Both the position numbers and the translations under genes were made by a program. From Chloroflexota bacterium (GTDB lineage Bacteria > Chloroflexota > Anaerolineae > Anaerolineales > DRMV01), in NCBI GenBank assembly GCA_013153135.1, contig JAADFA010000059.1, positions 1 to 32,612 of the forward strand: a DNA stretch of 32,612 bases, written 5' to 3'. The notes beneath the pieces were generated by a model that was not told where the DNA came from, searched no databases, and worked only from the letters and a program-made list of their open reading frames with translations. Shown here piece by piece: positions 12,246 to 17,750 of this stretch; position 1 is the first letter of the stretch, and the number at the start of each line of letters is the position of its first letter.

Positions 12246-15200
12246 ATGGCTCGTAGATATCAACTACGTCCATGGCCTTTTTTGCTTTTTTTAGGCCTAG
12301 GCGTATCAGTGGCGTTGTTGTTTAGTGCCCGCCAACTAGGGGCCGCGTATGGTGCCGCGGTGCGGCCGTTGCGTTTGGTGAGCGGACTTACCTGGTTGCC
12401 TTCCGTGGCTCCCGATAACGTTACCGTACAACCTGAGGAATATTTCGCCGGGCTGTACTTCCGGGTAATCCAATTCCGCGAGGTGCCCCCTTATGAGGTG
12501 CGCCAGCAATGGGCCCAAGAGGGTTTGCACCTGCTGGACTACATTCCGGAAAACACCTATATCGCAGCCATTGACGCCCGTTTTCCCCTTGAGCGCTTGA
12601 AGGACTGGGCCGTAACCATTGCCCCTGTGCCAGAAACCTTGCGCGAGACGCGCGCTGTTCGGGCCCATGTGCGGGCCTTGCAAGCTTCACGCGGGGCAAC
12701 CCAGGCTCTTGAGGATAACTTGGCTCATCTAACTTTGGGCTACTACGCGGCTTTGAAGCCCGCGGATGTGCTCCGCGCGCTTAAGGCCTTGGGCGTGATG
12801 GTTGAGGCTCATCGTCCCTACTCATATCAAATTGACATCGCCCTCCCCGTGAGCCTGGTGGATGCAGTCCGTCAACAGCCATATGTGCAGTATTTAGATG
12901 TCAATCCCCGCTATCGCCCTGTGTATTTAGAAATTCTCCCCTCTGCCGACCTCACCGATGAAGGCTACGAGGGCCCAGCCTCAGGTCGCGCGAATTACCT
13001 CAACACAGGCTATATAGGCAAAGTATATCGCGGCGATGGCATTGTCATCTCCCCGGCTGAAGGGGGCATCGTGGACCCCGAGTACGCGGAGGATTTTCAA
13101 GGACGTTTGATAGAGCTCGTTGCTGACTCCGTAAGCACGCATAAAACCAACGTCGCGATTCGTATGGCCGGGGGTGGGAACCTGGACCCCTTGTGGCGCG
13201 GCATCGCCTGGGGCGCCACCATCCTTAGCCTGAATTATTTCCCCGATTACGCGGACATGATCGACCGCTACAACGCCCGTTACTTCAACCACTCGTACGG
13301 CTTTGGCGTGGAAGGAGGTTATGACGCTGCCGCCCGCGACCACGACTTGCGTATCGTTACGTATCCCAAACATATGGTGGTGTATTCCGCGGGTAATGAT
13401 GGGGGCAGTACGGGATATGCTCCTTATGATACGTTGACCGGTGGCTGGGGCACTATTACAGGTGCACGTAAGCAGAATAAAAACCACCTCGCGGTCGCTG
13501 CGCTTGATGCTCTGGATGTGGTGACCTCCTTCAGCAGCCGCGGGCCCGCGCAAGACGGCCGCATTATTCCTCAGGTCGCCATCCAGGGCCGCAGTGGTAC
13601 GTCGTACGCGGCGCCCCGCGTGACGGGTTTACTTGCCTTGCTCAATGAGGTTTTCCAAGATAAGCAAGGCTACGAGCCCCCATCCATCCTTTTGCGCGCT
13701 ATCCTGCTCGCGACGGCCGACGATGTTGACATCCCTGGCCCTGACTTCCGTACAGGATTCGGTCGTCCTAACGCACGCCGCGCCTATCGGGTCATTGACC
13801 AAGGTTGGTTCTTCGAGGGTAGCCTCACCAATACCGGCGATACGTGGACGCGCACGTTGACTGTTCCATCCAACACCAGCCAGCTGCGGGTCATGCTTAT
13901 GTGGCCAGACCCCGCGGCCGTGGTCAACGCAAACCCCGCTATTGTCAATGACCTTGACCTCACCGTCGTGGCACCCGACACGACGGTTTATCGTCCTTGG
14001 GTGCCTGACCATACTCCTGATGAAACCCGGTTGACTTCGCCCGCTACCCGCCAAGAAGATCACCTCAACACCATGGAGCTGGTTACCGTAGATAACCCCA
14101 CACCAGGCCCCTGGGTGGTAACGGTGACCGGTTATAACGTGCCTAGCGGCCCGCAGTCGTTTTATGTCGTATATGAATTTGTGCCTCAGGAGCTGGTTTT
14201 GACCTTCCCCTTGCAAGATGTGCGCTTTGATGAAGGTCAAACTTATATTATCAAATGGGATAGCTACGGCGGGAGTGATACGTTTACGCTAGAGTATCAG
14301 ATCGATGGCGGCACATGGCAGACCATCGCGACGGGCCTGTCCGCCGAAACCCGGAATTACGCCTGGACGACCCCGCGTTTGGGTTCTGGGGTGCACACCC
14401 TGCAAGTGCGTGTTCGCCAAGGTTCCAATGAGTCAGTTAGCGGCATCAACTACCTTGGCGGGGTGCCCCACGATGTGCGGGTCGATTGGGTGTGTGGGGA
14501 TACTGTCAAGCTGTCGTGGACGCCGGCCCTTGGCGTGGATGGCTACCGCGTTTACACCATGGGCGCGAAGTATATGGAGGTTATCACAACAGGGGTTACC
14601 TTTGATGGCGCGAGCGCGATCATTACCGGCGTCCCGGCAGGTCGTCAGATCTTTGCCGTCAGTGGCTACACGGGCGCGAATGAGAGCCTGCGGACGCCCG
14701 CGGCGGTCAAAACCGATGAAGATGAAGCGCGCTGCCCCTACTTGGAGACCCGGCCGTCCAGCCAGGTCGACAAATCCACCATGACGCTACGCGGCGCGGC
14801 GTCGTCCCACGGCCGCGTGTTGGATGATGTGCGGTTTGAGTATGGCGACAGCGCCATCTTGGGCAATACGACGGACCCTATCCCGGTCACAGCCAGCGGG
14901 CCGGAGCTCGAACCTGTGACCGTGGACCTGCCCTCGACCTTGCAAAGCCGGAGCGATGTACTCTACTACCGCTTGACCGGCCTGCTGGATGGTTCCTTGC
15001 TACAGGGTGCGGTTCACCAAGCTCGACTCGCACCAGGCTATATGGTTGAGTTGCTCTTCGATTCGCCGCGGCGCATCGTCAGCGAGGTTGGCCGTTATCA
15101 GGCTTTGGGCAACAATGCACGTACCCTCGCGTTCTGGTTCCTGGCTTATTCGGGCTCAGTCGGCCTGTTTGAAGAGGGTGACCCTGCGTATCCTAACGGC

Positions 15201-17750
15201 TTTTTTGCCGTGTATAACACAACTTACAGCGACACCACGTGGCACATTGTGGCCGGGAATGTGTCCTTTGACGTCGATTTGCCTGGAAGTCGCTTCTCGT
15301 GGCACCACTTGGCTTTGGTGTACGACGGCGGGGGGAACCTGTACGTGTATTATGACGGCGAACTGGTTCATACCCAGACCGGTGTTGAGCTCAACACGCC
15401 AGCCAGCGCGCTCACTTTTGGCCATGGCGGCGGGTACGATTTCAAAGGTTATCTGGACGAAATCAGCTATTGGACCCTCGCGCTGGACCAGAGCCGCATC
15501 CGTCAGATCATGCATCACCCCCTACGCGGCGATGAGGCTGGGCTTCAGCTGTACTACAACTTTGACGACCTGGATCACGCAGCCATCAACGTCGTGGATG
15601 GCCGCGAGCAGGTGCTCGAACATGGCGAGCTCACGCTCTCCAGCGCGCCGATGGGCGCGGGCGCGACCGTGCTTGCGAGCGAAACTGTGGGCCTGGTGGA
15701 CGCGAGCGCTGCGGGGGTGCAGCTGAACTTCCATACCGCCGAATCTGCAGACTTGATCGTCAGCCGCATTGATATTGACCCCTATGGCTTGAGCTCGTTG
15801 AGCAGCAGCTACACCGTTTTGGATGAGCAGTATTGGGTCATCCATCGCATCGGCGCAACAGGGACCTTTAGCGCGGATGTGACCTTCAAAGTTGCGGAAC
15901 CCCTGTCCAGCCTCGACGCCGCGCGTCCGGATCGGCTACGGCTTTACCAACGCAGCAAATCCTCTGCTTCTTCGACCGCGTGGAGCTTCGTCACGACGGC
16001 AACCCAGGTCAACTTGGCTACCAATGAGATCACCTTCCCCAACCTGACCGCGTTTGATAAGCAATTCGTTATTGTACGCGATACCAGCATTACCCCCAGC
16101 GCAGATGTCGCGGTGACCAAGGTCGCGGATGTGGACCCGGTTCTAGTTGGTCAGGAGTTGACTTACACCATCACTGTGAGCAACAACGGCCCAGACGCCG
16201 CAAGCGACGTGGTGGTTACCGATACCTTATCCTCAGATGTCACTTATGTGCGGGATACCTGTAGCGGTAGCTTGAGCGGGGACACCTGGACGTGGAACGT
16301 GGGCCTGCTCGGCAGCGGCGACACGCTTTCGTGTCAGTTGACCGTGCGGGTCGCCCTGACGGCATCTGCTCCCCTAACCAACACGGTAACTGTCGATACT
16401 TCGGCTGACGATCCGGATTCGAGCAACAACCAAACGAGCATACAAACCCAGATCTTGCAGGCTGCCGACCTCGAGCTCAGCGCGAGCGTAACCCCGACCA
16501 CCGCACAACCCGGCACTTCGGTCGTTTTCACCCTCACCCTGACGAACCAAGGACCCCTCGCGGCCACGGGGGTGCAGGTGACCGCAGCTCTGCCGTCAGG
16601 CTTTGTGTATGTGGACGCGACCGCCACCCAGGGCACCTATGATCCCGAGCGCGGCGTTTGGGAGGTGGGTACCCTTGACGCGGGCGCGCGCGCTGTGCTC
16701 ACTTTGACCGCAACCGTGCAAGATGGCGAGCATCGACTTACGGCTGAGGTCACCGCGGTGGACCAGCCCGATCCAGATTCCACGCCAGGCGATGGTATGG
16801 GCGATGACTACGTCGAGGTCACCGTTACCTATCAACCAGCCGTTGACCTTGAAGTGCACATGGATGTGCAGCCCGCGGAGCCGAGCTATCACGACGTGGT
16901 GACCTTCACTTTGAGTGTGACCAACGTTCCGCCCGCGTCCACCGCGACGGGAGTGCGCATCCAAGCCTTTTGGAACAATGGGTACGCTTACCTCGAGCAC
17001 CGCGCCAGCCAAGGTGCGGTCACGGTCACCTTCGCGTCGACCCACATCACGTGGGATGTAGGCGAAGTTGCCCCTGGGCAGACGGCGACGTTGACTGTTC
17101 GTTTGCGTGTGCTCCCCGAGCCGCCTTTGTGGGATGTGTGGGCCGAGTTGGTGGCTGTGGACCAACCCGATCTCGACTCCATCCCTGGCGATCACCAGGG
17201 GGATGACTACGCGTCCCTGCGCCTGCAACCTAAATTGCCCGCCACCGGGTTCGCACCGGGCCGGGTTACCCATCTGCCACCGCAGCCCGCGTCCTTGAGC
17301 TACGCGACCACCTCGATGGTGCTCGAGATCCCGCGGCTCGGTACCCAGGCGGAAGTCGTGGGCGTACCTTCGGGCGCAGCGGAAAGCATTGCTTACTTAG
17401 GCCCGCGGGTAGGGTATATCCAGAGCTCCACCTTCCCGACTTGGCGCGGCAATAGCGTGCTCACCGGGCACAATTATCTGCCTGATGGATTGCCCGGACC
17501 CTTCTGGGGCTTGAAGCAGCTACGTTGGGGCGACGTAGTACGGTTGCATTACCAAGGATGGGTGTACGAATACGAAGTGCGCGATGTGCGCGTTGTTTCG
17601 CCAACAGATGCATGGCCTATGGAGCCTATTGAAGATGGGCATGTTTGGTTGACGTTGATCACATGCGACGGGTATGACCCGCGGGCGCGAGCGGCCCAAG
17701 CGCGGGTCGTGGTCCGTGCGGTGCTGATGCGGGTGATGCCAGCGCCTTGA
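12246..17750 (+). CDS. Secreted multidomain protein: signal peptide, propeptide, S8 subtilase, beta-sandwich/FN3-like modules, LamG domain, 3x DUF11, LPATG motif, C-terminal sortase domain
   Basis: Basic plus hydrophobic N-terminus. S8 motifs SAGNDG, FSSRGP and SGTSYAAP. LamG pattern WHHLALVYDG...FKGYLDEI. DUF11 pattern ADVAVTK...LTYTITVSNNGP. LPATG at 17235-17249. Sortase motifs LEIPRLG, VLTGHN, LTLITC and RVVVRA. Confidence 0.9.
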   Translation: MARRYQLRPWPFLLFLGLGVSVALLFSARQLGAAYGAAVRPLRLVSGLTWLPSVAPDNVTVQPEEYFAGLYFRVIQFREVPPYEVRQQWAQEGLHLLDYIPENTYIAAIDARFPLERLKDWAVTIAPVPETLRETRAVRAHVRALQASRGATQALEDNLAHLTLGYYAALKPADVLRALKALGVMVEAHRPYSYQIDIALPVSLVDAVRQQPYVQYLDVNPRYRPVYLEILPSADLTDEGYEGPASGRANYLNTGYIGKVYRGDGIVISPAEGGIVDPEYAEDFQGRLIELVADSVSTHKTNVAIRMAGGGNLDPLWRGIAWGATILSLNYFPDYADMIDRYNARYFNHSYGFGVEGGYDAAARDHDLRIVTYPKHMVVYSAGNDGGSTGYAPYDTLTGGWGTITGARKQNKNHLAVAALDALDVVTSFSSRGPAQDGRIIPQVAIQGRSGTSYAAPRVTGLLALLNEVFQDKQGYEPPSILLRAILLATADDVDIPGPDFRTGFGRPNARRAYRVIDQGWFFEGSLTNTGDTWTRTLTVPSNTSQLRVMLMWPDPAAVVNANPAIVNDLDLTVVAPDTTVYRPWVPDHTPDETRLTSPATRQEDHLNTMELVTVDNPTPGPWVVTVTGYNVPSGPQSFYVVYEFVPQELVLTFPLQDVRFDEGQTYIIKWDSYGGSDTFTLEYQIDGGTWQTIATGLSAETRNYAWTTPRLGSGVHTLQVRVRQGSNESVSGINYLGGVPHDVRVDWVCGDTVKLSWTPALGVDGYRVYTMGAKYMEVITTGVTFDGASAIITGVPAGRQIFAVSGYTGANESLRTPAAVKTDEDEARCPYLETRPSSQVDKSTMTLRGAASSHGRVLDDVRFEYGDSAILGNTTDPIPVTASGPELEPVTVDLPSTLQSRSDVLYYRLTGLLDGSLLQGAVHQARLAPGYMVELLFDSPRRIVSEVGRYQALGNNARTLAFWFLAYSGSVGLFEEGDPAYPNGFFAVYNTTYSDTTWHIVAGNVSFDVDLPGSRFSWHHLALVYDGGGNLYVYYDGELVHTQTGVELNTPASALTFGHGGGYDFKGYLDEISYWTLALDQSRIRQIMHHPLRGDEAGLQLYYNFDDLDHAAINVVDGREQVLEHGELTLSSAPMGAGATVLASETVGLVDASAAGVQLNFHTAESADLIVSRIDIDPYGLSSLSSSYTVLDEQYWVIHRIGATGTFSADVTFKVAEPLSSLDAARPDRLRLYQRSKSSASSTAWSFVTTATQVNLATNEITFPNLTAFDKQFVIVRDTSITPSADVAVTKVADVDPVLVGQELTYTITVSNNGPDAASDVVVTDTLSSDVTYVRDTCSGSLSGDTWTWNVGLLGSGDTLSCQLTVRVALTASAPLTNTVTVDTSADDPDSSNNQTSIQTQILQAADLELSASVTPTTAQPGTSVVFTLTLTNQGPLAATGVQVTAALPSGFVYVDATATQGTYDPERGVWEVGTLDAGARAVLTLTATVQDGEHRLTAEVTAVDQPDPDSTPGDGMGDDYVEVTVTYQPAVDLEVHMDVQPAEPSYHDVVTFTLSVTNVPPASTATGVRIQAFWNNGYAYLEHRASQGAVTVTFASTHITWDVGEVAPGQTATLTVRLRVLPEPPLWDVWAELVAVDQPDLDSIPGDHQGDDYASLRLQPKLPATGFAPGRVTHLPPQPASLSYATTSMVLEIPRLGTQAEVVGVPSGAAESIAYLGPRVGYIQSSTFPTWRGNSVLTGHNYLPDGLPGPFWGLKQLRWGDVVRLHYQGWVYEYEVRDVRVVSPTDAWPMEPIEDGHVWLTLITCDGYDPRARAAQARVVVRAVLMRVMPAP

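Follow-up and report, generated by a model that had tools for sequence, protein, structure and literature searches.

Background

Canonical sortases are anchored in the membrane and process, in trans, separate substrates that carry a tail anchor. The open reading frame (ORF) described here, at 12246..17750 on the forward strand (+) of a 32,612-nt stretch of DNA from a Chloroflexota bacterium of the order Anaerolineales (contig JAADFA010000059.1, assembly GCA_013153135.1; the whole stretch is referred to as the window), encodes a secreted multidomain protein of 1834 aa that ends in an LPxTGF motif, a short tether and a sortase domain of its own. This C-terminal unit is referred to as the cassette, and the remainder of the protein as the passenger. 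Several elements are shared with canonical SrtA/LPXTG sorting (e.g. in Staphylococcus aureus): the Pfam sortase fold, the His-Cys-Arg triad, the TLxTC and LPxTG motifs, and signal-peptide-bearing, adhesin-like substrates. In contrast to canonical sorting, a single polypeptide contains both enzyme and substrate; the enzyme part is anchor-less, and the substrate part lacks a hydrophobic segment and a basic tail. The cassette motif also lies ~170 residues from the C-terminus, where canonical motifs lie within the last ~50, and Phe is near-invariant after the motif Gly.

A comparable arrangement has been engineered. The autocyclase is a fusion of the order target-LPGTG-linker-SrtA that reacts intramolecularly; its linkers of 7–19 residues, together with 14 residues before the first strand, give 21–33 residues, the docked state of a linker-less version was unstable in simulation, and hydrolysis in vivo was a side reaction (bioRxiv 10.1101/2022.07.12.499226). 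The natural protein has the same order of cargo, LPXTG, linker and sortase, and its usual 24–25 residues fall within the 21–33 given there for the autocyclase. However, the autocyclase is man-made: it combines class A SrtA with linkers that are flexible or arbitrary, and the N-terminal Gly of its cargo resolves the intermediate into a circle. The natural tether, unlike the autocyclase linker, has a conserved sequence. Self-cleaving sortase purification tags are reportedly another engineered sortase fusion.

The cassette of the window ORF

The ORF begins at the first start codon of its frame, an ATG, and runs through 1834 codons to its stop without an internal stop. Translation, together with a match to Pfam Sortase (PF04203, MEROPS C60; 69.2 bits against a cut-off of 26.6), bore out every coordinate and residue that the initial annotation had given for the ORF, the LPATG and the catalytic triad. 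LPATGF (aa 1664–1669, 17235..17252; LPATG itself aa 1664–1668, 17235–17249) consists of a sortase recognition motif and the near-invariant Phe, with the scissile bond predicted at T1667/G1668. LPATG is followed by FAPGRVTHLPPQP in the ORF. The conserved tether (APGRVTHLPPQP...Y...) occupies aa 1670–1692 (17253..17321) in an alignment of 151 cassettes; F1669 and the 23-residue tether make 24 residues from the motif Gly to the first sortase strand. The sortase catalytic domain (aa 1693–1827, 17322..17726) has no membrane anchor and also matches NCBIfam sortase_fam (43.2 bits against a cut-off of 39.35). Its catalytic residues are His1742 in TGHN (17469..17471), Cys1807 in TLITC, the presumed nucleophile (17664..17666), and Arg1820 (17703..17705), which are kept in 151, 151 and 149 of the 151 aligned cassettes, respectively.

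The last 170 aa contain no hydrophobic helix after the motif, with a top 19-residue Kyte-Doolittle mean of 0.92, and no membrane anchor was found, by eye and by regular expression, among 15 short and 54 long relatives; the absence of both elements had been claimed beforehand for this ORF, and the lack of an anchor extends to these relatives. A 166-aa soluble sortase domain instead occupies the place of the hydrophobic segment and positively charged tail after LPATG. The last 171 residues are best explained as a self-contained anchoring cassette in which LPATGF and a soluble sortase domain are joined by a tether fixed at 24 residues.

Family size and conservation

A profile-free search of 1.84 billion representatives with aa 1650–1834 as query, the motif included, returned 4301 matches at E<=1e-3; at the stricter E<=1e-30, 896 representative clusters remained. 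Protein length ranges from 232 to 4223 aa among the best 150 matches, and the matched region lies at or near the C-terminus in all of them, the exception being P0056 with ~100 residues beyond the cassette. These 150 matches and the query make up the alignment of 151 cassettes. Conservation starts precisely at Leu1664 and dissolves upstream of it. Within the motif, L1664 is kept in 127 of the 151, P1665 in 149, T1667 in 145 (with Ser in another 5), G1668 in 151 and F1669 in 149; LPxTGF is present in 118 and P-x-[TS]-G-[FY] in 148, and the complete His-Cys-Arg triad in 149. The tether is conserved at A1670 (133), P1671 (140), T1675 (130), Q1680 (121), P1681 (131) and Y1686 (142). The distance from the motif Gly to the first-strand Leu is 24 residues in 65 cassettes and 25 in 77 (together 142/151), with a range of 22–27. 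The segment described in the initial annotation as a Pro-rich linker is thus present, but it is not a loose linker, being conserved and of fixed length; that Phe1669 and much of the linker are conserved like the motif itself is a detail beyond what that annotation had proposed.

As the first query had contained the motif, a second search was made with the sortase domain alone (aa 1690–1834). Among its 54 long hits (255–2000 aa), x[P/A]x[T/S]G[F/Y] occurs 167–180 residues before the C-terminus in 53, and the remaining hit has LPSAGF. Of the 15 short hits (79–254 aa), 11 have the motif, 1 has PEVGF and 3 are gene calls starting inside the tether. The motif was likewise found at 27 of 29 reference-genome loci, the other two having LPPAGF and a remnant. 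In six genomes searched with the Pfam sortase model, which is motif-free, there were 18 domain hits: nine anchor-less C-terminal domains, all with the motif, six membrane-anchored stand-alone enzymes, one truncated remnant and two divergent domains. Conservation of LPxTG at the same place in homologous fusions, which the initial annotation had set as its own test, is therefore found with both queries (148/151 and 53/54).

No stop lies between passenger and sortase in any of 45 genome matches (45/45), in line with the continuous reading first proposed. In the closed 4.4-Mb genome G043, one ORF of 2963 aa begins with a signal-peptide-like segment and includes eight SdrD_B stretches, SpaA, DUF11, LPATGF and Sortase. 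An artefact of assembly or binning of a metagenome-assembled genome (MAG) as the source of the fusion is ruled out by this ORF. Judged by the alignments, the cassette is a widespread family and not a chance fusion.

Several individual sequences vary at or around the motif. P0163/P0170 is a 170-aa gene call beginning MPEVGF (Thr to Val), and its cassette is near-identical to that of P0175/P0176, full-length proteins of 454–466 aa that combine a signal peptide and DUF3494 with a Pro/Thr linker and LPGTGF; the difference, natural or due to assembly, falls exactly on the motif. The most distant long hits, P0228 and P0229, have IADTGF and IAVTGY, in which Ala replaces the motif Pro, recalling the class E LAXTG. 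P0153 (184 aa, on a 160-kb contig) has only 13 residues ahead of LPKTGF and no signal peptide, and is either a miscalled start or a passenger-less cassette. In the closed genome G258, a 169-aa frame (C1 2240703–2241047; L109/L123) covers just two thirds of a cassette sortase, on its C-terminal side, lacks both motif and passenger, and is a decayed cassette copy.

Cassettes and motifs in the host genome

The host's own assembly (G000) comprises 161 contigs totalling 1.77 Mb, at 72% completeness. It encodes four sortase domains, of which three, in the window and on contigs C116 and C54, are anchor-less C-terminal cassettes on different passengers with LP[AE]TGF 24–26 residues before the first sortase strand. 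Frames of at least 80 aa in this assembly contain six LPxTG[FY] strings; three of these lie 24–26 residues before a sortase domain, and the domains that they precede are all of the anchor-less sortase domains in the assembly. The two divergent paralogues have LPETGF, at 24 and 26 residues, while the rest of their tether has diverged. Retention of LPETGF and spacing where the tether has changed suggests that the motif is the most constrained element.

No LPxTGF carrier without a sortase was found in the host assembly, in which a sortase start comes after LPxTGF in the three cassettes alone. A DNA pattern for P-x-T-G-F-A-P had 5 occurrences in five high-quality genomes, all within cassettes; a reversed control pattern had 3.

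Relation to known sortases

Scores of the ORF's sortase domain against curated NCBIfam models are far below the cut-offs: class E 38 against 160 bits, class F 34.8 against 166, class C 32.4 against 160, class D 30.4 against 165, SrtD 30.9 against 140 and GN 26.6 against 158. The class A and B models gave no match at E<=0.01. By these scores, the cassette sortase falls in no curated class (A–F, GN).

A maximum-likelihood tree was made from 33 cassettes (the window, its two own paralogues and 30 drawn randomly from 149), 7 housekeeping sortases, 4 other stand-alone sortases and 4 Actinobacterial class-F-like sequences; one sequence, sa_G242, was dropped as a poor match. The cassettes form one side of a branch (98/94; the bootstrap was not fully settled), are sister to the Actinobacterial class-F-like group (93/81) and are separated (96/90) from the housekeeping enzymes found in the same genomes. 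Class F is thus the nearest tree group, and it is also the name given by NCBI to short cassette gene calls. The Actinobacterial relatives that were fetched, frames of 213–251 aa, differ from the cassettes in starting with a lipoprotein or anchor segment and in lacking an upstream LPxTG. A protein atlas returned only generic sortase clusters (score 0.85) and no structure.

The closest solved sequences are class C sortases (E ~4e-7), with alignments that begin at the first strand; the motif and tether had no match among solved sequences. The solved matches also include 2kw8/2rui. In class C sortases a lid, and in Bacillus anthracis SrtA an N-terminal appendage, precedes the first strand and can extend to the active site. 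The cassette tether has the same position, which raises the possibility that LPxTGF and tether form an uncleaved, autoinhibitory pseudo-substrate lid, and that a sortase held at the tip of a stalk acts on other proteins. The relationship to class C enzymes would suit such a lid, as would the fixed length and the several highly conserved non-motif residues of the tether, which are expected of a packed element. However, such lids are not known to be the enzyme's own cleavable motif or to copy the full consensus, and they belong to membrane-anchored enzymes with separate substrates, whereas the cassettes keep the exact substrate motif (T/S in 150/151, G in 151/151). In addition, the two divergent paralogues changed the tether yet retained LPETGF, and no separate substrates with the motif were found in the host frames or with the DNA pattern in the five high-quality genomes. 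A lid is accordingly judged improbable.

Stand-alone sortases and possible processing in trans

The fourth sortase domain of the host assembly, on contig C132 (4166–5176, +; L001:874–1884), is a conventional sortase with an N-terminal helix. An anchored stand-alone sortase of this kind (N-terminal helix, 109–119 bits to Pfam Sortase, frames of 303–369 aa) was present in 6/6 cassette genomes examined, and a housekeeping-type sortase is also present in G234, which has no cassette. No sortase of any kind was found in G076 (same order) or G094 (same class).

The order's stand-alone anchored sortases (C132, L115–L119, L129) share a conserved stretch between helix and catalytic domain, ..VVLPSGHTPP..RPNEAEIPEHLRP.., which may be a lid or pseudo-substrate. 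They score below every curated sortase class, the best at 95.5 bits against a cut-off of 140.

A 268-aa frame of the host assembly (contig C129, 4845–5648, −) has an N-terminal helix, a Pro/Thr-rich middle and an end consisting of LSQTG, a hydrophobic stretch and ARHARQR. No other canonical-looking sorting signal was found in this 72%-complete assembly, and the frame is a candidate substrate of the housekeeping sortase.

The co-occurrence of cassettes with an anchored enzyme, in the host and in all five other cassette genomes examined, makes it conceivable that LPATG cleavage and anchoring of the passenger are the work of this enzyme. The attached sortase domain would then replace the hydrophobic tail as a recognition or retention handle, or act separately after release. 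With one canonical-looking signal in the host assembly, the anchored enzyme does seem substrate-poor. Processing in trans nevertheless leaves unexplained the intact His-Cys-Arg in 149/151 attached domains, the fixed 24–25-residue spacing, and why motif-bearing proteins without a sortase domain were not found. The housekeeping type must have other substrates, given its presence in the cassette-free G234, and a secreted substrate without a membrane tail would not be retained near a membrane enzyme. Taken together, these points make processing by the anchored enzyme unlikely, though it deserves to be taken seriously.

Proposed mechanism

There is roughly an even chance that the cassette sortase cleaves T1667/G1668 in its own chain and passes the passenger to an amine of the envelope. 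The case for self-cleavage is built on topology, fixed spacing, the presence of one enzyme per substrate and the engineered precedent. After export by Sec and loss of the signal peptide, the folded sortase domain would bind the LPATG of its own chain in the active site or, less likely, that of a sister molecule. Cys1807 would attack the Thr1667-Gly1668 bond, so that the ~1630-aa passenger is held as a thioester, and an envelope amine, most likely a peptidoglycan stem peptide or lipid II, would resolve it. The passenger, with its predicted protease head and DUF11 stalk, would thus become covalently attached, and a 167-aa sortase fragment starting Gly-Phe-Ala-Pro would be released.

As each substrate brings one enzyme in such a scheme, the enzyme would need no membrane anchor and the substrate no hydrophobic tail. 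Motif and catalytic triad are conserved jointly and at a fixed distance, and neither partner is membrane-anchored, which supports cleavage in cis. The geometry is plausible by analogy, the natural spacing being inside the autocyclase range.

It had initially been suggested that the acceptor may be something other than lipid II, on the premise that canonical peptidoglycan is often not evident in Anaerolineae, and a check for mur genes had been proposed. That suggestion finds no support in the gene content: the host assembly encodes five Mur-ligase-family proteins, four penicillin-binding transpeptidase domains and MraY. The idea of a host without peptidoglycan is rejected on the basis of these genes, and an unusual acceptor need not be invoked.

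Cleavage in cis, if true, would resemble Hint-type autoprocessing (inteins, hedgehog): a C-terminal domain would convert a peptide bond of its own chain into a (thio)ester and hand the N-terminal part to a nucleophile, with one turnover per molecule. In detail, neither fold nor chemistry is related; the cassette Cys lies 140 residues downstream in the sortase barrel and not at the scissile bond.

Several points weigh against self-processing. The conventional membrane-anchored sortase in all six cassette genomes could be the processing enzyme, and its co-occurrence leaves room for action in trans. Strong conservation of the tether would be just as expected of a folded but uncleaved N-terminal extension or lid. 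After a cut in cis the leaving Gly would stay tethered beside the thioester, so religation should compete, and a mechanism favouring an outside nucleophile must therefore be assumed. With neither substrate nor enzyme retained at the membrane, the intermediate would lack an obvious route to lipid II. Mutual-information couplings between tether and core (average product correction, APC; 151 cassettes) are weak; 4 of the top 20 tether-core pairs fall in aa 1784–1792 where 1.3 are expected, a range that was picked post hoc. Complex prediction of the core (aa 1690–1834) against aa 1655–1689 gave a score of 0.00 in both runs, with unfolded controls and a partner pLDDT <50, and weighs neither for nor against docking of the motif.

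The thioester intermediate might instead be hydrolysed, in which case the sortase would be a self-removing C-terminal pro-domain that frees a soluble protease. Sortases slowly hydrolyse their substrates when a nucleophile is absent, and the passenger in the window, as a candidate protease, could serve as a free exoenzyme. The hydrolysis in vivo reported as a side reaction of the autocyclase would be in keeping with such release. However, most passengers of the family are stalk or adhesin repeats that are sensible only on a surface, and a transpeptidase fold would be an odd choice for mere cleavage, so that autoproteolytic release appears very improbable.

A bolder version of self-processing, which is doubtful but worth stating, is that the cassette is a natural single-turnover 'self-sortase', in which the energy of the LPxT-G bond is kept as a thioester and the tethered Gly allows an intein-like acyl equilibrium, giving attachment free of the membrane. 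If so, a secreted protein could travel from the membrane and attach itself to an amine of the mature wall, a sheath, a neighbouring cell or a substrate surface, and neither a membrane enzyme nor lipid II would be needed. Such cassettes would constitute a new class of autoprocessing modules for protein ligation, already spread across hundreds of passengers, and could be drawn on for self-ligating tags.

Novelty and significance

No natural LPXTG-sortase fusion was found described in the full-text literature, a coverage that leaves out most subscription journals. Malik and Kim reportedly surveyed the sortase superfamily in silico in 2019, and such architectures may be listed there. A sortase review contained nothing relevant on Chloroflexota, fusions or self-cleavage (PMC8225981). 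The family is real and large and seems to be undescribed, with self-processing as its best reading, one that stands evenly poised between true and false. Two recent surveys of surface proteins seek sortase motifs in the last 50 residues only (PMC9210967, PMC12617251), and screens of this kind would miss the whole cassette family.

An enzyme fused behind its own motif, with neither partner anchored, would change the picture of sortases as membrane-anchored enzymes acting in trans. Filamentous Anaerolineales are abundant in digesters and sediments, and their envelopes are poorly understood; the cassette would give a first handle on how their surfaces are decorated. For biotechnology, the engineered autocyclase shows the topology to be useful, and the apparently naturally tuned tethers would offer variants for self-ligation, cyclization and surface display.

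Passengers and possible intermolecular assembly

The N-terminus of the window protein (~aa 1–35, 12246..12350) looks like a Sec signal peptide, with a basic start, a hydrophobic core and an Ala-rich end; this agrees with the earlier description of a secreted protein. A Peptidase_S8 (subtilase) domain follows at aa 294–506 (13125..13763; 73.4 bits against a cut-off of 21.8). The match spans profile positions 51–288 only, and the Ser motif GTSYAAP aligns to the KP-43-type subtilase 1wmd, while the Asp/His region is unaligned to solved subtilases. The passenger is accordingly a candidate protease. Further matches to family models are Laminin_G_3 (concanavalin-like; aa 954–1085, 15105..15500) and three DUF11 stalk repeats (~aa 1287–1640, 16104..17165). 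DUF11 has been named the 'CLIPPER' stalk domain of fibrillar adhesins (PMC12617251).

In the relatives, as had been expected, the C-terminal module is carried by varied passengers, with DUF11, DUF7507, DUF7933, Big_3_5, Beta_helix, Cadherin, GEVED, SdrD_B, SpaA, DUF3494 and Peptidase_S8 among their domains. These are stalk and adhesin types like those bearing LPXTG anchors in Gram-positives (PMC12617251). Of the 151 proteins, 107 have a Met start and 63 a clear signal-peptide-like N-terminus by a simple test; many of the family proteins without either are fragments from short contigs. A Pro/Thr-rich wall-spanning segment ahead of the motif was found in only 1/147 and is not a family feature.

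In the passenger parts of the 150 family members, Lys (1.3%) and Arg (2.0%) are very scarce, and Thr (13.6%) is abundant.

Cassette genomes encode 1–5 copies, many of them a single one, and pairs within 10 kb are found in G282 (C15), G112 (C50) and G394 (C2). Multiple and paired copies raise the possibility that cassette proteins are joined to each other, or to Lys or N-terminal amines of partners, in covalent fibres, a sheath or a surface mesh. Stalk or pilin-like passenger domains (SpaA, SdrD_B, DUF11) and the kinship to pilus sortases, the closest solved relatives, are consistent with such assembly; more speculatively, the scarcity of Lys would limit off-target ligation. The short fixed tether instead favours a cis geometry, neither a pilin motif nor a conserved acceptor Lys came to light, although no search was aimed at them, and many genomes have a single cassette gene, so that intermolecular assembly seems a distinctly slim prospect.

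Distribution and genomic context

Of 401 genomes sampled evenly across the phylum, 25 had a match at E<=1e-20, all from the window's own order. By family, matches were found in 22/24 genomes of f2 and 2/9 of f3 and in 0 of every other family; a class-level sample of 401 genomes added four, 2/15 in f95 and 2/9 in f96.

The neighbours of the window ORF are housekeeping genes (leuB-like, leuD-like, a response regulator, a CCA-adding enzyme, DegV and a sigma factor). A promoter and terminator scan of the window gave counts no higher than the shuffled level.

Public labels of family members include 'class F sortase [Anaerolineales bacterium]', 'sortase [Longilinea sp.]' and 'DUF3494 domain-containing protein [Chloroflexota bacterium]', and a JGI label reads, generically, 'LPXTG-site transpeptidase (sortase) family protein'. 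Annotation is thus as 'class F sortase' for short gene calls or by the passenger name alone. P0210 is labelled '[Methanoregulaceae archaeon]' by NCBI; being on a 3.5-kb contig, it is more likely mis-binned than archaeal.

A search for DNA stretches with the single protein gave 157 that encode a relative, of which the best 80 were kept and eight loci were read; the 72 further loci, unread, are nearly all Arthrobacter or Kocuria by title. The sole true relative among the eight is L005 from an Anaerolineales MAG, a 1754-aa frame with 61% identity and LPPTGF. The seven others encode ordinary anchored sortases without the motif, six from Arthrobacter/Rothia and one titled Vibrio cholerae. Two contigs titled Vibrio cholerae strain 35D (L035, L052) encode Arthrobacter-like, class-F-type sortases, and that assembly probably includes contaminant contigs.

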